64,000 nt of DNA from Patescibacteria group bacterium (GCA_034660175.1 JAYEIQ010000004.1:4152-68151); one strand, 5' to 3'. Positions 98 through 42,437 are shown, counted from the stretch's first letter. Notes: generated by a model not told the origin, from the letters alone. Translations and numbers: made by a program.

Positions 98-421
98 ATG
101 AAGAAGATCATGAAAAGTATGATGGTAGTAGTAGTTTATTTGGTGATATCTGGAGCAGTTTGCTGGGCTGGAGAGTATCAGTTTCAGGCAGGTGACAAGT
201 TTCCACAATTTCATCTTACACCAGTTGGACTTTCTATTTGGGGTAGTGCTATAGATAATGCAACGGGATTTAACAATCTAACTGTTCTAGAAGAAGACGT
301 TCCGTATGAGACAATTAAAGCTTGGTATGGGACCATGTTGGTAGCAAGGATAGCAGACAGAGTTGTTCGTATTATTTATGATGACAGTTCTGGCAAAATC
401 ACCAAGGTGATTCCATGGTAA
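98..421 (+). CDS. small secreted hypothetical protein
   Basis: 107-aa ORF with hydrophobic N-terminus (MKKIMKSMMVVVVYLVISGAVCWAG) resembling a signal peptide; AAGGAG RBS about 12 nt upstream; no recognisable family. Confidence 0.4.
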   Translation: MKKIMKSMMVVVVYLVISGAVCWAGEYQFQAGDKFPQFHLTPVGLSIWGSAIDNATGFNNLTVLEEDVPYETIKAWYGTMLVARIADRVVRIIYDDSSGKITKVIPW

Positions 422-600: not shown

Positions 601-759
601 AATGGAAAAGGTAGTGATGAAACTGAAAAAAGTTAATCGCTATAGTTATTCTTTAATTATTCCAAAAGAATTTATTGCAAAATACAGTTGGAGAGAGCGT
701 CAAAAATTTGTAATCAAGGATAAGGGAGGAGGGGCTGGAAATAAGAGATTGGAAAAATA
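601..759 (+). CDS. AbrB/MazE/SpoVT-type (swapped-hairpin) small DNA-binding protein
   Basis: 52-aa ORF (below ORF-track cutoff): MEKVVMKLKKVNRYSYSLIIPKEFIAKYSWRERQKFVIKDKGG...; pattern K-V-x-x-x-YS-l-IP-x-E-f and +E+QK-f-V-I matches the AbrB N-domain fold; paralogous to ORF 5923..6105. Confidence 0.5.
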
Positions 760-862
760 GATAGCTATCAAGTCTGGATTTTGTCATTGTTTCAATGTAT
801 ACTTATCGTATGTGACGCTGGATTGTGTCAGATGTGGTTTGTTATGATAAAAATAATAAAAA

Positions 863-1413
863 ATGAATATAAAAGGATACATCAAAGAATCAATTAAAGT
901 AAAGCAAATCATTCTTGAGAGTGAGAAGTTGATGGAGTTATTAAAATTTTGAATGGATGTTTTGTTGATTTGGGAAGATGTTGGTTACTTGGAATGGCGG
1001 AAGCATTGTTGATTCACAACACTTTGTTGCTGAGATTGTTGGCAGGTACAAGTTGGGGCGAAGGGGCTATCCAGTAATTGTTCTAACTACAGACACTTCC
1101 ATTTTGACTGCTTGGACAAATGATTATGAATACGATACTGTATTTGAGAGGCGAATTGAAGCTTTAGGAGAAGAGAAGGACGTTTTTTTGGAATTTCAAC
1201 TAGTGGTAATTCAAAAAGTATTGTTTTAGGTGTTGAAAAAGCGAAAAAAATGGAATGAGCACAGTTTATTTGTTGGGCAAAAATGAAGGTGAGCTGAAAG
1301 ATTTGGCAGATATATCGATTATTATTCCATCGAAAAACACACTAAGGATTCAAGAGGCATATATAATGATAGTTCATATTATTTGTGAAGAAATTGAAAA
1401 GAGTTTTAAATAA
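863..1413 (+). pseudogene. gmhA: phosphoheptose isomerase (GmhA/DiaA-family SIS domain) pseudogene with multiple frame disruptions
   Basis: GmhA-like segments spread over three frames: MNIKGYIKESIKVKQIILESEKLMELLKF (then TGA at 950), ...[39 protein letters not shown]...[19 protein letters not shown] (frame shift in T7 run 1183-1189), [19 protein letters not shown] (shift in A7 run 1244-1250), GMSTVYLLGKNEGELKDLADISIIIPSKNTLRIQEAYIMIVHIICEEIEKSFK; NGGSxxDSQHF, ISTSGNS and C-terminal motifs align to E. coli GmhA; N-terminal region additionally shortened. Confidence 0.65.
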
Positions 1414-1418
1414 AAAGT

Positions 1419-2936
1419 ATGAAAAAAGAAAACAGAAGATTCTTTAAAATTATTAAAAGATTTGATAAGAGAAGCATCTGTGTAATCGGGGATTTGATGC
1501 TTGATCAATTTATTTGGGGAAAAGTTAAGAGGATTTCCCCAGAAGCTCCAGTTCCGGTTGTGCTTGCGCAGAAAGAGACCTTTGTCCCTGGTGGTGCAGG
1601 TAACACTGCATTTAACATCGCATCTCTGGGAGGTAAAGTTACTTTAGTTGGTGTTGTTGGTGATGATTTATGTGGTGAACAATTGAAAAAGGAGCTTGAA
1701 AAAAGGAGAGTAAATGTTATGGGGATTGTTGTTGACAAAGGAAGACTAACCACACAAAAAACTAGAATTGTGGCAGAGAATCAGCACGTTGTGCGTGTGG
1801 ACAGGGAAAATGTTGAGAAGGTTGATGCTAAGATTTCAAAAGATATTTTTGATTTTGTCGTTAAGAACATTACGTATTTTGATTGTTTGGTTGTTTCTGA
1901 CTATGCGAAAGGGATGATTGAGAAAGAGTTGGCGCAGGGACTTATTGGACTTGCCAAAGAAAATAAAAAAATGATTGTGGGGGACATTAAACCTTGGCAC
2001 GCGTCGTTTTTTCAAAATATAGATCTCATTACTCCAAATTTAAAGGAAGCTCAAGAAATTTCAAAGAGAGATAATGTTGAGAGGATGGGGAGGGTTATTC
2101 AGTCGAAATTACATTGTAATGTTATCATCACTAAAGGCGCAGGAGGATTAAGCGTTTTTGAGGGTAAAAATATTAGTAATTTCTCAACTCAAACGAGGGA
2201 GGTCTATGATGACCCAGATGTCTATTATAAAAAAGATGACAGTCCCTTGACCAAGGCGGATTTGGCGTCAGAGAAAGTTCTTCTTGATCGTCTCAAAGAA
2301 TTTGGTGATTTTGGATTTTTGTCTGAGGAAAGTGCCGATGATAAATCAAGGTTGGACAAAGAATATACTTGGATTATCGATCCATTGGATGGAACAATGG
2401 ACTTTATTCAAAAGACAGGAGAATTTTCAGTGATGGTTGGTTTGGTGAAAGGTGGGTTGCCAGTAATGGGTGTGGTCTATCAACCATCAATTGAGAAAAT
2501 ATATTTTGCAGAGAAAAGCAAAGGGGCTTTTGTGCGAATCGGTCAGGGAGCTGAGATCAAACTACGAGTTTCGCAAGTTTCTGACTTGAAGGAGGCTCGT
2601 TTGGTGGTGAGTCGCAATCACTTGAGCAAAAGGGATAGCTCTGTTGCAATTGATATGGGATTGGGTAACTATGTTCAAGCAGGCTCGAATGGAGTGAAGA
2701 TGTGTTTTATTGCTCAGGGGAATGCAGAACTGTTTTTCAACTCATGGACAGGATTTGGTGAATGGGACAGTTGTGGTCCGGATTTGATCTTGAGAGAGTC
2801 TGGAGGAGTGGTAACTGGTATGGATGGAAAACCGCTCAAATATAACAAAGAAGTTCCAAAAAGCGATCGTGGCATTGTTGCCAGCAACGGATTGCTTCAC
2901 GATGACATAATCAACAACTTTGCAAAAAGGAAATGA
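1419..2936 (+). CDS. fusion protein: HldE domain-I-like heptose-7-phosphate kinase (pfkB family, C-terminally truncated) fused to CysQ/inositol-monophosphatase-family phosphatase
   Basis: N-terminal 300 aa align to E. coli HldE kinase domain (ISPEAPVPVV, PGGAGNTAFNIASLGG, VVSDYAKG, TPNLKEA ... TQTREVYD); C-terminal half aligns to CysQ (EVYDDPDVYYKKDDSPLTKADLASEKVLL..., WIIDPLDGT, WDSCGP); junction at shared VYD; ribokinase GAGD motif absent. Confidence 0.7.
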   Translation: MKKENRRFFKIIKRFDKRSICVIGDLMLDQFIWGKVKRISPEAPVPVVLAQKETFVPGGAGNTAFNIASLGGKVTLVGVVGDDLCGEQLKKELEKRRVNVMGIVVDKGRLTTQKTRIVAENQHVVRVDRENVEKVDAKISKDIFDFVVKNITYFDCLVVSDYAKGMIEKELAQGLIGLAKENKKMIVGDIKPWHASFFQNIDLITPNLKEAQEISKRDNVERMGRVIQSKLHCNVIITKGAGGLSVFEGKNISNFSTQTREVYDDPDVYYKKDDSPLTKADLASEKVLLDRLKEFGDFGFLSEESADDKSRLDKEYTWIIDPLDGTMDFIQKTGEFSVMVGLVKGGLPVMGVVYQPSIEKIYFAEKSKGAFVRIGQGAEIKLRVSQVSDLKEARLVVSRNHLSKRDSSVAIDMGLGNYVQAGSNGVKMCFIAQGNAELFFNSWTGFGEWDSCGPDLILRESGGVVTGMDGKPLKYNKEVPKSDRGIVASNGLLHDDIINNFAKRK

Positions 2937-4618
2937 TTAGTCCTCATGGTGGCAAATTGGTTGACAAGACTTTTGTTGGTGATGCAAGTGCTGAGACTGC
3001 TCGATTGAGAAAGATTGTGGCAACATTGAAAATTGGTCCGAATCAAATTCAAGATATTGTCAATATAGCTCAAGGGGTGTTTTCGCCCCTTGATGGTTTT
3101 TTGAGGGAGAACGAATTTCTATCTGTTTTGAATGAAATGCGTTTGAATGATGGGACGGTTTGGCCGATTCCTATTGTTTTAGATGTTCTAACGGCTGAGA
3201 AAAAAAGATTAGAACAACAAGAAAAAATTCTTTTGATTGATTCAAAAAATCAGCCAGTTGCTTTTTTGTCGAACTCTTCTTTTTTTCGTTTTGATAAAGA
3301 AGAATTTGCTTTGAAAGTTTTTGGAATCACGGATCAAAATCATCCTGGAGTCAGGGATGTTTTTGAGATGAAGGAATTTTTAATTGGAGGGAAGATTGAG
3401 TTGATTGGGCAGTTTCGAGAAAGTGTTGTCCTAAAGAGTCCTGCAGAGATTAGAAGTGAATTTTTGAAGAGGGGTTGGGAATCAATTGTTGCTTTTCAAA
3501 CTCGCAATGTTCCACACAGGGGGCATGAATTTTTACAGAAGGAGGCTTTAAAAAAAGTAGACGGATTGTTTGTCCAGCCAGTGATTGGAGAAAAGAAAAT
3601 GGATGATTTCAAAGATGAGTATATTATTGGGAGCTATGAGATTTTGATTGAAAAGCATTTTCCTGCTGGTAAGGCAATGCTTGGTGTATTGCCACTCAAA
3701 ATGCGTTATGGTGGACCAAAGGAAGCGTTGCTTCATGCAATCATTCGCAAAAATTTTGGTTGCACCCATTTCATTGTTGGTCGTGATCATGCTGGGGTGG
3801 GTGATTTCTATCATCCAACGGAAGCACAGGAAATATTTGAACAATTTGGTCCAAGCGAGCTTGGAGTTGAGATCTTGAAATTTCCAGAGGTGGTGTTCGA
3901 CAAAGAAAAAGGAAAACACTGTTTTGTTGACGAATGCTCTGAATCGAATAGGATAAGGTTCAGTGGCACAAAGTTGAGAGATTTTGTGAAAAACAAGAAA
4001 GAGCCTCCAAGACACTTGATCAGGCGTGATGTGTTCGAGTTGCTCTCGAGTAGTGATAATTCGTTAGTTGATGAAAATTACAAAATGAAAACAAGCAAAA
4101 GAGGATTTGTTCTTTGGTTCACAGGATTGTCTGGTGCAGGAAAAAGCACTGTTGCGGATTTGGTTTTTGAGCATCTGAGGGGTAATGGCACCAGAATTGA
4201 GAGGCTTGATGGTGATGTTGTCCGGGAGAATTTGGCTCAAGATCTTGGTTTTTCCAAAAAAGATCGTGACGAGAACATTCGTCGAATTGGTTTTGTAGCA
4301 GACCTGCTTTCTCGCAATGGAGTGGGAGTGATTGCTTCTTTTATTTCTCCCTACCAAAAACAGCGAGATGAGCTGCGCAAAGAAGTCGAGAATTTCATTG
4401 AAGTTTTTGTGAATGCTCCTTTGGAGATCTGTGAGGAGCGAGATCCAAAGGGAATGTATAAAAAAGCTCGAGCGGGTGAGATCAAGAACTTTACTGGAAT
4501 TTCTGATTCCTATGACTCACCAAAAGACCCAGACATTGAACTGAGAACTGACAAGGGAACACCAAGAGAGTGTGTACAGCAGGTGATAGATTATTTAGAC
4601 GAAAAAGGCTTCATTTAG
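2933..4618 (+). CDS. bifunctional sulfate adenylyltransferase (ATP sulfurylase) / adenylylsulfate kinase (PAPS synthase)
   Basis: N-domain motifs QTRNVPHRGHEFL and VGRDHAGVGDFY (ATP sulfurylase); C-domain P-loop GLSGAGKSTVA and APS kinase-like region; ATG overlaps upstream TGA (ATGA) indicating translational coupling. Confidence 0.85.
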   Translation: MISPHGGKLVDKTFVGDASAETARLRKIVATLKIGPNQIQDIVNIAQGVFSPLDGFLRENEFLSVLNEMRLNDGTVWPIPIVLDVLTAEKKRLEQQEKILLIDSKNQPVAFLSNSSFFRFDKEEFALKVFGITDQNHPGVRDVFEMKEFLIGGKIELIGQFRESVVLKSPAEIRSEFLKRGWESIVAFQTRNVPHRGHEFLQKEALKKVDGLFVQPVIGEKKMDDFKDEYIIGSYEILIEKHFPAGKAMLGVLPLKMRYGGPKEALLHAIIRKNFGCTHFIVGRDHAGVGDFYHPTEAQEIFEQFGPSELGVEILKFPEVVFDKEKGKHCFVDECSESNRIRFSGTKLRDFVKNKKEPPRHLIRRDVFELLSSSDNSLVDENYKMKTSKRGFVLWFTGLSGAGKSTVADLVFEHLRGNGTRIERLDGDVVRENLAQDLGFSKKDRDENIRRIGFVADLLSRNGVGVIASFISPYQKQRDELRKEVENFIEVFVNAPLEICEERDPKGMYKKARAGEIKNFTGISDSYDSPKDPDIELRTDKGTPRECVQQVIDYLDEKGFI

Positions 4619-4645
4619 AGTTGAATACTTGGTCTGATTTTTGGA

Positions 4646-4666
4646 CAGCCTCCAGGCTGGTTTTCG
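4646..4666 (+). terminator. putative intrinsic terminator after PAPS synthase gene
   Basis: CAGCC-TCCA-GGCTG hairpin followed by GTTTTCG. Confidence 0.35.
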
Positions 4667-4739
4667 TTAGGAATGTGATATATAATGTTTTTTATAGCAG
4701 AAAAATAGAGAAGTGAACATCAAGCAGTAAACAAGTGCC

Positions 4740-5858
4740 ATGAAGGTTTTGTTGTTAAATTATGAATTTCCACCAATTGGAGGGGGTGCAGCCACTGCCA
4801 CCCTCAATTTATTGAGGGAGTTTTCCAAAAGAAACGATGTTGAAGTGGATTTGATCACTTCATCTGTTGATAAAGAGAGGCAGGAGCAATTCAGTGAGAA
4901 TATCAAGATATATTTTTTGGACATTGAAAAAAATGGAAGATTGCACAATCAATCCAATGCTGATCTTTTGAAATATAGCTGGAAGGCTTGGAGACTTGCA
5001 AGGAAGCTGAGAAAGGAGAAAAAGTATGATCTGATCCATTCGTTTTTTGGAATTCCGTGTGGATTCGTTGCGATGTTGTTAGGGATGTCATATGTTGTGT
5101 CACTGCGAGGGTCTGATGTTCCGTTCTACAGTGAAAAATACAAATTGTTGGACACTTTGCTTTTTCAAAGATTGAGCAGAAGAATCTGGAAAAAAGCAGA
5201 TGTTGTTATTGCGAACTCTGAAGGTTTGAAAAAACTTGCGTTAAAGAGCTCACCAAAGCAAGAAATTGGTGTGATTTACAATGGGGTGGATACGGAAATT
5301 TTTGCTCCATCACAAAAAAAGCCAGAGGAGTTCACAATTATTTCAACTTCAAGACTTGAAAAACGCAAAGGGCTTGAATTTTTAGTTGAAGGGTTTGGAA
5401 AATTTAACAAACAATACAAGGACAGTAGATTGATCTTGATTGGTGGTGGTGATCAAGAGAATAAGCTTAGAAAAATATCTCATGATTTGGGTGCTGAGAG
5501 TGTAGTTGATTTTGTGGGCGTTCTTGATTTAGGCGAGCTTTCAAAGTGGTATAAGAAAGTGGATGTTTTCTCGTTGCCTTCATTCAACGAAGGCATGAGC
5601 AACTCTCTTTTGGAAGCAATTGCAAGCGGGTTGGCAATTGTTGCGACTGACACTGGAGGAACAAAAGAGTTAATAAATGATTCAAACGGTATTATTGTTG
5701 AAAAAGGTAGCAGTGAGGATGTTTTCAGGGCGTTTGAGAAACTGTACACGGACAGGCAATTGCTTGAATCAATGAAAGAGAAAAGTCGAGAAAAAGCACT
5801 TGTGATGAGTTGGATAAATATGTCAAATCAGTATTTAGAGGTATATAAAAAAGTATAG
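4740..5858 (+). CDS. GT-B glycosyltransferase, family 4-like
   Basis: 372 aa; N-terminal EFPPIGGGAATATLNL (GT4 N-domain), C-terminal FSLPSFNEGMSNSLLEAIASGLAIVATDTGGTKELI (Glycos_transf_1 E-x7-E region). Confidence 0.8.
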   Translation: MKVLLLNYEFPPIGGGAATATLNLLREFSKRNDVEVDLITSSVDKERQEQFSENIKIYFLDIEKNGRLHNQSNADLLKYSWKAWRLARKLRKEKKYDLIHSFFGIPCGFVAMLLGMSYVVSLRGSDVPFYSEKYKLLDTLLFQRLSRRIWKKADVVIANSEGLKKLALKSSPKQEIGVIYNGVDTEIFAPSQKKPEEFTIISTSRLEKRKGLEFLVEGFGKFNKQYKDSRLILIGGGDQENKLRKISHDLGAESVVDFVGVLDLGELSKWYKKVDVFSLPSFNEGMSNSLLEAIASGLAIVATDTGGTKELINDSNGIIVEKGSSEDVFRAFEKLYTDRQLLESMKEKSREKALVMSWINMSNQYLEVYKKV

Positions 5859-5896
5859 AGCTAGCTCTATACCTAGCTCTATACCCATGTTATAAT
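5854..5896 (+). promoter_or_regulatory. operator-like repeat array plus extended -10 upstream of AbrB-like ORF
   Basis: 18-bp perfect palindrome TATAGAGCTAGCTCTATA (5854-5871) followed by a direct repeat of the half-site TAGCTCTATACC (5874-5885), then TGtTATAAT extended -10 (5888-5896) 27 nt upstream of start 5923. Confidence 0.4.
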
Positions 5897-5922
5897 CATG
5901 CTGTAGAATTGAAACGAAAACT

Positions 5923-6105
5923 ATGGCTCAAACAAAAAAAGAAGAAAGAATAACAAGAAAGCTTCAAAGAGTAGGTAGGGGGAGAACTTACAGCATCACA
6001 ATTCCAATCGAAATTATTCGTTCTTTTGGTTGGAAAGAAAAACAAAAGTTGGTTTTTGAAGCAGATAAAAGAAGAAATGTGATCAAGATCAGAGATTGGG
6101 AATAG
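5923..6105 (+). CDS. AbrB/MazE/SpoVT-type small DNA-binding protein (paralog of 601..759)
   Basis: 60 aa: ...RKLQRVGRGRTYSITIPIEIIRSFGWKEKQKLVFEADKRRNVIKIR matches swapped-hairpin AbrB N-domain pattern (R+V...-IP.E+R......+..+......I.I). Confidence 0.55.
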   Translation: MAQTKKEERITRKLQRVGRGRTYSITIPIEIIRSFGWKEKQKLVFEADKRRNVIKIRDWE

Positions 6106-6142
6106 AATATTAATTAATTTGGAGAGATAACAATAAACTTCA

Positions 6143-6859
6143 ATGTTGAAGCTGATTAAAGACAACTGGGCCAAACTAGCTGATCAATTGGCGGGCAAGA
6201 AGCTTTACTGGTTCAAGAGTCCTTCTGGGATCTTACTTCTGGGTGCCACCGAAAAGATCTTAAATAAATATTGTAGAGGAAAAGTTTTGGATGTTGGAGC
6301 AGGGAGATTGGCATACAAATCATTGCTAGAGAAACATTGCGAGGAATATAAAAGCATTGATTTTAAGGCAACCAGTCCTGAACTTGATTTTGTTGGTGAC
6401 GTACAAGACATGGAAGTTTTGAATGATGATCAATTTGACACAGTTTTTTGTTCTCAGGTACTGGAACATATTCCAGAACCTCAAAAAGCAATGAACGAGA
6501 TCAGTCGAATCTTGAAACGCGGTGGAAAGGCGATAATCTCAGTTCCTTTTTTGGGGTATTTACACAATGAGCCTTATGATTTTTTTCGTTATACGAAACA
6601 TTCTTTGAGATTTATTTCTAAGAGAGCGGGATTTGAAGTTGTGGAAATAAATGAGGTTGGTGGATTGTTTTCCTTTCTCGGCTACATTTGGTCTACTTTT
6701 TTTATTGGGTTATTTGCTGGAATTCCATTTTTGGGATATATAGTATTGTTAGTAAATATTCCGCTTTCATATTTTTTTATTTTACTTGATGTTGTTACGA
6801 TGAATAAGAAACTGATGCCATTGAACTATCTTTTTATTCTTAAAAAAAGGGATGTATAA
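6143..6859 (+). CDS. class I SAM-dependent methyltransferase with C-terminal hydrophobic segment
   Basis: motif I VLDVGAGRLAYKSL, FDTVFCSQVLEHIPEPQKAMNEISRILKRGGKAII (Methyltransf_11-like); C-terminal TM-like stretch. Confidence 0.7.
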   Translation: MLKLIKDNWAKLADQLAGKKLYWFKSPSGILLLGATEKILNKYCRGKVLDVGAGRLAYKSLLEKHCEEYKSIDFKATSPELDFVGDVQDMEVLNDDQFDTVFCSQVLEHIPEPQKAMNEISRILKRGGKAIISVPFLGYLHNEPYDFFRYTKHSLRFISKRAGFEVVEINEVGGLFSFLGYIWSTFFIGLFAGIPFLGYIVLLVNIPLSYFFILLDVVTMNKKLMPLNYLFILKKRDV

Positions 6860-7979: not shown

Positions 7980-8864
7980 ATGGCAGAGAGTGATTTCAAA
8001 ATTGACTTTGTTGGTGTCGGGGCGGAAAAAGCGGGTAGTTCATGGGTTGCTGCCATGCTTGATGCGCATCCTGAAATTTGTCTTTCGCAACCGAAAGAAG
8101 TGCAGTATTTTAATGAAAAATCAAGTTATACAAGGGGATTGAATGCAAACTTCAACAAGGGTTTTGGTTGGTATGAAAAGCACTTTATCCATTGCAAAAA
8201 AAACTCAATTAAAGGTGAGTTTTCCACTGCCTATTTGCCAGATAAAACTGCTCCTAAAAAAATATTTCAGAGTTTTCCGGGAGTAAAATTGATCGTCTGT
8301 TTGAGAGATCCCGTTGATAGAATGTACTCCCAGTATTGGATGTATAAGAATTATTTTCTCAAAGAAAAAAGACCTTTTAGTGAGGTCGTGAGAGAGGAGA
8401 AAGAATATACAGAAAAAAGTCTGTATTTTAAACAGATAAAAGAATATCTGAAATATTTTTCACTTGAGAATATCCTATTTATAACACTTGATGAGATAAA
8501 GGAAAATCCGAAGATATGCCACAAAGCGTTATACAAGTTCGTTGGGACAAGGAATGTGGACTTTGTTCCAGGGAAAGGTGTCTTTGGGAGAAAAAATAAG
8601 GCGAAGAGAGTTAGATTTAGGTCTGGGCTTGTTCTAATTAACAGATTATCAAAGATATTCATATTTTTAGGTTTCTCTCGAGTTTTGAAAGTTCTTGTTA
8701 AGTACGGGTTCAAGGACTTTTGTTTGAGAATAATTTCGGATGAAAGTAGATATCCTCCAATAGACAAAGGATTGAGAAGCGAGTTGATTAAAAAATTTAT
8801 TTCTGATATTGACGATTTTGAGAGACTGACGGGAAAGAACTTAAGTTCATGGAAAAAAACATGA
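7980..8864 (+). CDS. sulfotransferase-family protein (PAPS-dependent, Sulfotransfer_3-like)
   Basis: N-terminal 5'-phosphosulfate-binding-like loop GVGAEKAGSSWVAAML (cf. PKSGTTW) and 3'-phosphate-binding-like RDPVDRMYSQYW; size and layout typical of bacterial sulfotransferases; co-located with PAPS synthase. Confidence 0.6.
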   Translation: MAESDFKIDFVGVGAEKAGSSWVAAMLDAHPEICLSQPKEVQYFNEKSSYTRGLNANFNKGFGWYEKHFIHCKKNSIKGEFSTAYLPDKTAPKKIFQSFPGVKLIVCLRDPVDRMYSQYWMYKNYFLKEKRPFSEVVREEKEYTEKSLYFKQIKEYLKYFSLENILFITLDEIKENPKICHKALYKFVGTRNVDFVPGKGVFGRKNKAKRVRFRSGLVLINRLSKIFIFLGFSRVLKVLVKYGFKDFCLRIISDESRYPPIDKGLRSELIKKFISDIDDFERLTGKNLSSWKKT

Positions 8865-41848: not shown

Positions 41849-41987
41849 TTTACACAGAAATATAGTACAATATAGATAAACTGACTTACGCAAACAATGT
41901 CAGCAGAATAACAAGACGATATGGGGAGTAGATTAGAAATGGTCTTCATATCGTTTTGTTTTTCATTAAAAAACAAAAAAACATTTC

Positions 41988-42437
41988 ATGAAATGTCCAT
42001 ATTGCAATTTTGAAGATACTCGAGTCATTGACTCAAGAGAGATCAATGAGGGAAGAACAATTCGAAGAAGGAGAGAATGTCCAACTTGTAAAGCGAGATT
42101 TTCAACATATGAGCAGGTTGAAATTCTCAATCTTCTCGTGACCAAGAAAAATGGGAGCAAAGAGGAATACAAAAAAGAAAAACTTGAAGAGGCGATTAGG
42201 ATAGCAACAAACAAAAGAATGAGCGAGGAAGATATCACTCAGCTCGTGACTGACATTGAGGCTGAAATTCACGCAAGAGGGAAATGTGCGATCAGCTCGA
42301 GATATATTGGTGATATTGCACTCAAAAGAATAAAAAGCAAGGACGAAGTTTCGTATTTGAGATTTGCTTCAGTTTTCAAATCTTTCGGAAGTGGCAAACG
42401 TTTTGTGAAAGAGTTGAATAGATTGGAAAAGGAATAG
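41988..42437 (+). CDS. nrdR: transcriptional repressor NrdR
   Basis: MKCPYCNFEDTRVIDSRE...CPTCKARFSTYE zinc ribbon plus ATP-cone. Confidence 0.9.
   Translation: MKCPYCNFEDTRVIDSREINEGRTIRRRRECPTCKARFSTYEQVEILNLLVTKKNGSKEEYKKEKLEEAIRIATNKRMSEEDITQLVTDIEAEIHARGKCAISSRYIGDIALKRIKSKDEVSYLRFASVFKSFGSGKRFVKELNRLEKE

Follow-up and report, generated by a model that had tools for sequence, protein, structure and literature searches.

A minimal AbrB/MazE-type protein and its candidate operator inside a glycan gene cluster of an uncultured Patescibacteria bacterium: a likely autorepressor

The described systems closest to the one reported here are MazE of Escherichia coli, MraZ, the archaeal Sso7c4-type proteins together with C56 of pSSVi, and AbrB, Abh, and SpoVT of Bacillus subtilis. 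To our knowledge, the swapped-hairpin domain is the smallest known bacterial DNA-binding fold, and the control of transcription in Patescibacteria (Candidate Phyla Radiation) has hardly been described; in the literature that we searched, no paper mentions AbrB together with either name. Here we analyzed ORF2, an open reading frame (ORF) in a 64-kb stretch of DNA (the window) from a 97.6-kb contig of a Patescibacteria metagenome-assembled genome (MAG). ORF2 encodes a 60-residue protein of the AbrB/MazE/SpoVT type, lies within a glycan gene cluster, and is preceded by a 32-bp element composed of three half-sites, which is a candidate operator. We consider it likely that ORF2 is a minimal autorepressor acting on an internal promoter of this cluster.

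In E. coli, the mazEF operator comprises three MazE-dimer sites, termed c, a, and b, within 47 bp, only one of which is palindromic (PMC4333400). MazE and ORF2 have the Pfam family and the fold in common and, as proposed below for ORF2, autoregulation at their own promoter via several adjacent dimer sites. Unlike MazE, ORF2 has neither MazF nor any other toxin partner and lacks the disordered C-terminal toxin-binding tail; its sites are 10- to 11-bp half-sites in a 12-bp register, and its gene is part of a biosynthetic cluster. MraZ binds cooperatively to its own promoter, through three or four repeated boxes (PMC12957436). It is likewise an AbrB-superfamily protein encoded at the head of the genes that it controls, with tandem boxes overlapping the transcription start, a likeness that concerns the mode of action only and is proposed for ORF2. 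In contrast to ORF2, MraZ carries two AbrB-like repeats in a chain of about 150 residues, assembles into octamer to dodecamer rings, and is the product of the gene that opens the dcw cluster. Its boxes, GTG(G/T) with 6-nt spacers and a 10-bp period, are nearly universal, whereas the repeats of the ORF2 family (54 to 61 residues) are paralog specific in sequence and have a 12-bp period.

By profile and fold, the closest solved relatives of ORF2 are the Sso7c4-type proteins (2l66 and 5itj/5itm) and C56 of pSSVi (7xi6), all of which are single-domain homodimers of 48 to 56 residues (PMC3159460, PMC5222340). Sequence similarity to the Sso7c4-type proteins is marginal, since a profile search of PDB sequences returned marginal matches only (E 0.1-0.3), to these proteins and to C56. 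Descriptions of both speak of chromatin or DNA-bending proteins for which no operator is defined, whereas members of the Patescibacteria family carry, at their own promoters, repeats that differ from paralog to paralog. The B. subtilis proteins AbrB, Abh, and SpoVT possess a DNA-binding domain at the N terminus with the same fold as ORF2 (1yfb and 2w1t are among the top Foldseek matches). AbrB and SpoVT, however, carry C-terminal oligomerization or GAF domains and bind as tetramers to loosely defined sites at many promoters, whereas ORF2 is the DNA-binding domain alone, without the C-terminal oligomerization or sensor domain of AbrB/SpoVT-type transition-state regulators.

An earlier note on this DNA had placed two paralogous AbrB/MazE-type ORFs at 601..759 and 5923..6105. 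Both exist, and the second, ORF2, is exact, but the first, ORF1, was off by one position (Table 1). Their products share 43% identity over 37 residues (BLASTP, E 8e-10) and are indeed paralogs. When a hidden Markov model (HMM) of the family was run against a six-frame translation of the window, only these two ORFs were matched, with E values of 9e-25 and, for ORF1, 1e-21, the next best being 2.5. The product of ORF2 is 100% identical to NCBI U9O20_00430 and that of ORF1 is 100% identical to U9O20_00400, both of which are annotated as hypothetical. The Pfam check that had been suggested for the two ORFs succeeded for ORF2, which matched PF04014 at 29.7 bits versus a gathering score of 24.7 (E 6e-7), but ORF1 as read gave no Pfam match; NCBIfam yielded no useful match for either ORF.

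An AlphaFold2 model of the ORF2 monomer, built on 120 family sequences, has a mean predicted local distance difference test (pLDDT) score of 87.5 and exhibits the beta-beta-alpha-beta-beta order of the AbrB N-terminal topology, with strands at residues 15-17, 22-24, 43-48, and 53-58 and a helix at 29-34. In this model the chain ends 2 residues past the fourth strand, leaving no C-terminal tail. Foldseek matches in the PDB at ranks 1-22 are all swapped-hairpin DNA binders, including the Sso7c4-type entries named above, E. coli MazE, the N-terminal domain of AbrB, SpoVT, VapB, and C56. Template modeling (TM) scores reached 0.67 and probabilities 0.99, and the E values are weak because the domain is tiny. 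These data indicated that ORF2 is an AbrB/MazE/SpoVT-type protein.

Upstream of ORF2, GTATAGAGCT and AGCTCTATAC adjoin each other at 5853-5872 and form a 20-bp perfect palindrome, the longest perfect one in the window. The palindrome seen by the earlier note is therefore real but longer than the 18 bp assigned to it, and the other parts of that description, an extra direct copy of the half-site (three half-sites in total) and an abutting extended -10 element, TGTTATAAT, hold as given. The sequence TAGCTCTATACC is found without mismatch at two places separated by 12 bp, 5862 and 5874, and once more, with a single mismatch, at 5852-5863 on the minus strand. Since only 3 bp separate the operator from the -10 element, it covers the -35 and spacer region, and the stop codon TAG (5856-5858) of the upstream gene, encoding a family 4 glycosyltransferase (GT4), lies inside the palindrome. 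A palindrome of this length is expected 0.17 times per 64 kb in Markov-1 simulations; length alone is thus modestly unusual, and the argument for an operator rests instead on conservation. Perfect palindromes of at least 16 bp number four in the window versus 1.65 expected, and another of these, the 16-bp ACATTTCATGAAATGT at 41981-41996, spans the start codon of an ORF at 41988..42437.

We then compared the element with its counterparts in related loci (numbered L001 onward, with proteins given P numbers). The whole 32-bp element, GTATAGAGCTAGCTCTATACCTAGCTCTATAC, is 100% identical in the window, in L001, and in L002, which encode orthologs 95% (P0002) and 85% (P0003) identical to ORF2, whereas synonymous sites and flanks vary, and the sequence upstream of the element in L002 is not homologous at all. 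At the place of the -10 element, L001 has TGTTATTGT and L002 has TGCTAGTAT. A metagenome scan with the 18-bp palindrome led to a further relative, L053, which is syntenic with the window (a CysQ-like gene, an adenosine phosphosulfate [APS] kinase gene, a GT4 gene, the abrB-like gene, and, further on, a methyltransferase gene). Its protein is 55% identical to ORF2 and its coding DNA about 68% identical; nonetheless, L053 retains the 20-bp palindrome without any change, at a distance of 20 bp from the ATG on the upstream side. In L053, a 975-residue protein with a pyridoxal-dependent decarboxylase domain is encoded at 3646-6573, between the abrB-like gene and the methyltransferase gene.

The repeat architecture recurs across the family. 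In the 100 bp upstream of the gene, a direct repeat matching at 9 or more of 10 positions at a shift of 11-13 bp was present in 60% of 45 loci versus 4% of 274 control upstream regions taken from the same loci (Mann-Whitney p 9e-17 for direct repeats), and palindromes are enriched over the controls as well (p 1e-12). The shift was exactly 12 bp in 23 of 41 nonredundant loci, whereas every other shift from 4 to 30 bp occurred in at most 4 loci. Tandem units, read from the 130 bp upstream of each family gene, are present in most loci and differ among them: CGTACGTACGnn in 2-3 copies (L012, L014, L017, L019, and L026), TAGAGGCCTCTA in 2 copies (L027, L029, L030, and L035), TGTTACGTAACA in 2 copies (L040), CTTACGTAAC in 4 copies (L023), and CACGTGAG in 3 copies (L041), in addition to AATTACGTAATT-like units (L006, L009-L011, L013, and L020), GAACATAC (L038 and L044), and GTACCTACG (L016 and L043), whose copies were not tallied.

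The sequence of the repeat tracks the similarity of the protein. Among protein pairs that are 70-90% identical, an exact string of at least 10 nt is shared between positions -120 and -1 in 53% of the pairs, versus 3% between -250 and -131 and 16% downstream of the gene, figures that are descriptive because the pairs are not independent. Furthermore, the units are concentrated at the gene's own promoter. Across 30 loci, almost no extra copies were found elsewhere, and the exceptions are duplicated promoter modules: the extra arrays in 6-kb loci proved to be duplicated promoter-operator modules in L023, L043, and L028. These copies lie 0.9-1.4 kb from the family gene (at ~1590-1730 in L023, ~420-500 in L043, and ~2060-2110 in L028). 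The one in L023 precedes a second, possibly truncated, copy of the gene, the one in L043 precedes a gene for a flavin mononucleotide (FMN)-reductase-like protein, and the one in L028 is a second site. Such copies hint at small regulons built by module duplication.

The placement of the arrays is of two kinds. In L006, L007, L023, L025, L041, L043, and L044, the array starts 3-25 bp downstream of a -10 box, which is often of the extended type, and thus overlies the probable start of transcription. In the window, L001, L002, and L008, it abuts the -10 box from upstream and lies over the -35 and spacer region. Both are classic positions for a repressor. Taken together, the invariance of the element in diverged relatives and the recurrence of its architecture across the family support an operator-like role for the palindrome together with the direct repeat.

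The genes around ORF2 are listed in Table 1. The co-directional cluster includes, in order, a PfkB-inositol-phosphatase fusion, an ATP-sulfurylase/APS-kinase fusion, the GT4 gene, ORF2, a gene for an S-adenosylmethionine (SAM)-dependent methyltransferase, and another GT4 gene. The two fusions suggest that 3'-phosphoadenosine 5'-phosphosulfate (PAPS), the sulfate donor, is supplied and recycled locally for a sulfated glycan. The methyltransferase gene heads a co-directional run of glycan genes and is probably cotranscribed with ORF2; the gap between the two contains no terminator-like site. For the ORF at 7980..8864, NCBIfam gave no match.

Table 1. Coordinates of the features in the window
Feature	Position	Strand	Description
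ORF1	602..760 (stop included)	+	Frameshifted paralog, 52 residues as read
gmhA pseudogene	864..1413	+	Sedoheptulose-7-phosphate isomerase; directly 3' of ORF1; three-frame translation
PfkB fusion gene	1419..2936		PfkB sugar kinase + inositol-monophosphatase/CysQ-like fusion
Sulfurylase fusion gene	2933..4618		PUA_2 + ATP-sulfurylase + APS kinase fusion
GT4 gene	4740..5858	+	Glycosyltransferase, Pfam Glycos_transf_1 3e-33; ends inside operator
Candidate operator	5853..5884	.	Half-site AGCTCTATAC three times: inverted 5853-5862, direct 5863-5872 and 5875-5884
Extended -10 element	5888..5896	+	TGTTATAAT, 3 bp downstream of operator; read from sequence
ORF2	5923..6105	+	60-residue single-domain AbrB/MazE-fold protein, presumed autoregulator
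Methyltransferase gene	6143..6859	+	Class I SAM methyltransferase, Pfam Methyltransf_11 1e-14; 37 bp after ORF2

The link to glycan genes that the earlier note had suggested as a possibility is supported by synteny. Each of the six loci that make up the ORF2 subclade (window, L001, L002, L053, L004, and L005) has glycosyltransferase or methyltransferase genes next to the family gene. The GT4 gene is the conserved upstream neighbor in the window, L001, and L053, and a methyltransferase gene also lies downstream of the abrB-like gene in L001, where its start is seen, and in L053. In L002, the methyltransferase ATG directly follows the abrB-like stop codon; in L004, the family gene is located between a GT4 gene and a family 2 glycosyltransferase (GT2) gene; and in L005, it overlaps a GT4 gene by 13 bp. 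Other subclades adjoin unrelated genes, so the glycan link is specific to the ORF2 subclade.

From the conservation of the operator and its co-variation with the protein, we infer that ORF2 binds DNA, and it would do so as a homodimer with interleaved hairpins. Such a swapped-hairpin dimer would recognize the palindrome, and a further dimer would engage the third half-site, shifted by 12 bp, such that the 32-bp operator is most likely bound by at least two adjacent dimers in the 12-bp register. Occupancy would occlude the TGTTATAAT promoter and result in negative autoregulation of ORF2. This internal promoter probably drives ORF2, the methyltransferase gene, and the downstream glycosyltransferase genes, and ORF2 would then determine, through negative feedback, how strongly the distal part of the cluster is expressed. 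Because it lies over the GT4 stop codon, the bound operator could also block read-through from upstream. Since ORF2 has no sensor domain, its simplest role would be homeostatic feedback that splits a long cluster into two transcription units, although modulation by a partner protein is possible.

Several observations weigh against this autorepressor model. The relatives closest by sequence among solved structures, 2l66 and 5itj of the Sso7c4 type, are portrayed as chromatin proteins whose DNA binding is not strictly specific (PMC3159460, PMC5222340). The RNA of the element folds as a stable hairpin (-19.8 kcal/mol). ORF2 lacks both a convincing -35 box and a convincing Shine-Dalgarno sequence, and the want of a good -35 box is the reason why TGTTATAAT was not listed by a promoter consensus scan. 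The third half-site is missing in L053, leaving the palindrome as the only deeply conserved part; thus, the palindrome would be the ancient core and the third half-site a younger addition. In L004 and L005, which are more distant members of the subclade, nothing beyond single short palindromes is seen. As to the search for further motif copies that the earlier note had suggested, it was run over the 64-kb window, and no other copy of TAGCTCTATACC was found there at up to one mismatch; two matches with 2 mismatches are at chance level, and two half-site 10-mers with 1 mismatch are both far from promoters. No local regulon for the motif is visible within the window, and a regulon beyond the promoter of ORF2 itself is therefore unsupported here. 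Finally, four unlinked contigs of the metagenome RRYU01 carry the same 22-bp palindrome, GGTATAGAGCTAGCTCTATACC, and no family gene is present on these contigs.

The RRYU01 sites emerged from the metagenome scan mentioned above, which gave 12 matches, namely, L053, these four sites, and seven matches without the G..C extension in unrelated GC contexts; the seven are about the number expected by chance according to a rough estimate, for a collection whose size in bases is not given. The four sites are L049:895-955, L055:6532-6590, L057:9235-9293, and L051:2180-2225. A and T runs extend their palindromes to 40 bp, and the RNA would form a hairpin of -25.7 kcal/mol followed by a U-run. Their neighbors are rpsD, rpmA, a gene for a B12-binding domain, and a fasciclin gene, with one site directly after rpsD. 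These sites may belong to the regulon of an ortholog whose gene lies elsewhere, or they may be (bidirectional) terminators.

This bears on the strongest competing explanation, in which the palindrome in front of ORF2 is an RNA element, i.e., an intrinsic terminator or attenuator that ends the GT4 transcript or stops antisense transcription, and its adjacency to ORF2 is incidental. The plus-strand RNA of the element is more stable than expected (z -4.3), the minus strand reads as a hairpin followed by UUUUUUAUAUAC and was flagged as terminator-like, and the RRYU01 palindrome, flanked by A5 and T5, resembles a textbook bidirectional terminator. On the coding (+) strand, however, no U-run follows the hairpin, and there is no minus-strand gene nearby. 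Moreover, a hairpin needs only pairing, whereas in relatives with 68-95% identity in coding DNA not one of the 20-32 positions has changed, and compensatory substitutions are absent. Many family members (L041, L023, and L007) have pure direct repeats in strict 12-bp phase, which cannot form hairpins, and the co-variation of the repeat with the protein also counts against an RNA element. We regard this explanation as improbable.

It is still less probable, in our judgment, that the family consists of abundant nonspecific nucleoid-associated proteins like archaeal Sso7c4 and that the upstream repeats are unrelated promoter features. Family members are very basic, their size and single-domain build match those of Sso7c4 (53 residues), and the best PDB matches in sequence and structure are Sso7c4-type proteins, which were deposited as "histone-like." Such proteins would leave unexplained why the repeats are paralog specific, co-vary with the protein, and are concentrated at its own promoter; in addition, several diverged paralogs per genome would be unexpected for a general chromatin protein.

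The earlier note had also raised antitoxin-like modules, and a role of ORF2 and ORF1 as type II antitoxins of the MazE, VapB, or PrlF type could be read from the Pfam name of PF04014, "MazE_antitoxin," from the label "antitoxin component of YhaV-PrlF" that the Joint Genome Institute (JGI) gives to many members, and from the palindromic autoregulatory operators typical of toxin-antitoxin loci (PMC4333400). ORF2, however, has a GT4 gene upstream and a methyltransferase gene downstream and no toxin gene beside it. When Pfam was run on 37 downstream and 39 upstream neighbor ORFs of family genes, no family among the top 25 listed for each set, which include DapB, helicases, MreB, DNA methylases, MurJ, and glycosyltransferases, was found in more than 2 loci. 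No PIN, MazF/PemK, YhaV, or similar domain was among the families listed, and Fic/Doc occurred twice, in upstream genes. With no recurrent toxin family among those listed for the neighbors of family genes, and with a protein that ends so soon after its last strand that it has no toxin-binding tail (the members are mostly 53-62 residues long), we rejected the antitoxin reading, which we hold to be very improbable. Equally improbable is that the palindrome stems from a dispersed repeat, similar to a repetitive extragenic palindromic (REP) element, a miniature inverted-repeat transposable element (MITE), or an uptake sequence, one copy of which landed by chance upstream of ORF2: the identical 22- to 40-bp palindromes at four unlinked RRYU01 sites beside housekeeping genes would fit, but the 64-kb window has a single site, four independent genomes have it at an unchanging place with respect to the gene, and the viral-contig scan gave, like the other metagenome matches discussed above, only unrelated 18-mers without the G..C extension, in roughly the number that the same rough estimate predicts for chance.

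The autorepressor model thus concerns ORF2, and ORF1, which the earlier note had taken for a second working regulator, is probably a pseudogene. The closest homolog of ORF1, P0005 (61% identity), ends in ...GRGRLEIRDWRKR. One extra G in the run at 731-734 has replaced the last strand of ORF1, LEIRDW (beta4), with nine unrelated residues, GAGNKRLEK; the +1 frame after the run reads GLEIRDWKNR followed by a stop, to be compared with IKIRDWE in ORF2 and LEIRDWRKR in P0005, and with the frame restored ORF1 would end at 764. The loss of this strand goes along with the absence of a Pfam match noted above, and no comparable operator was found upstream of ORF1, where the best repeat and palindrome scores are at the level of the controls. 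An inverted repeat of 8 bp with an 11-nt spacer, AATTTGTT...AACAAATT, at ~566-592 was considered as an operator and was not counted, since it scores at that level. In the locus of P0005 (L003:255-290), in contrast, GTACAGACTTGAGTCTGTTCCGAAGTCTGTTC forms a 20-bp near-palindrome with a third half-site 12 bp on, in the register of the ORF2 operator. For the gene of P0005, an ortholog of ORF1, the GTG chosen as start lies 35 codons too far upstream; translation probably begins at the ATG at 295, which GTACAGACTTGAGTCTGTTCCGAAGTCTGTTC closely precedes.

The gene adjoining ORF1 is decayed as well. The gmhA sequence has at least 3 frameshifts and one in-frame stop and is split over three frames; its stitched product matches TIGR00441 with an E value of 6e-53 and 179 bits, under the 209-bit cutoff. 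An independent Logan assembly of run SRR26901924 (L058) is 100% identical over 2,232 bp, including the lesions in ORF1 and gmhA, which are therefore not artifacts of the MAG assembly. Our conclusion is that ORF1 belongs, together with gmhA, to a module in decay. Upstream of it, a terminator-like hairpin at 471-520 (CCCCTGACTTG...CAAGCAGGGG, then ATTTTATTTT) follows a 107-residue signal-peptide-like ORF at 98..421 and divides that ORF from the ORF1 module.

Beyond this locus, the family is nearly confined to Patescibacteria. When GTDB species genomes were scanned, relatives turned up at 42 loci, the majority in Moranbacteria, Parcubacteria, Magasanikbacteria, and other Patescibacteria; a few records bear tentative non-Patescibacteria names, which come from automated co-assembly bins. 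Several GTDB assemblies have two family copies, such that diverged paralogs coexist in one genome. With HMMER, 346 clusters (50% identity level) were recovered from 1.84 billion representatives, and a profile search gave 2,717 clusters at 90% identity (E <=1e-5), with members that are nearly all 53-62 residues long. The clusters are named hypothetical, "AbrB/MazE/SpoVT family," or, by JGI, after the YhaV-PrlF antitoxin component.

As the proposed mechanism is that of an AbrB/MazE-type autorepressor, its conceptual novelty is moderate. What is distinct is the minimal stand-alone domain, the lack of a toxin, the strict 12-bp register, and the many paralogs with diversified operators in reduced genomes. 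The locus offers a concrete, testable regulator-operator pair in a surface-glycan cluster that includes PAPS-making genes, and it is plausible that surface glycans matter when these episymbionts encounter their hosts. At the level of the family, the rule is that of tandem, 12-bp-phased, paralog-specific operators at the gene's own promoter, which provides many natural protein-DNA pairs for studies of specificity. On a more tentative note, and with a probability that we put a little below even, we suggest that the 54- to 61-residue proteins may constitute a large, Patescibacteria-centered family of minimal sequence-specific transcription factors, in which each paralog would read its own 10- to 12-bp unit in a 12-bp register and modules would have been duplicated into small regulons. 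If this is true, these proteins would represent a main and so far undescribed regulatory layer in these reduced genomes, and the hundreds of natural protein-operator pairs would make the family a tractable system for the recognition code of the swapped-hairpin fold.

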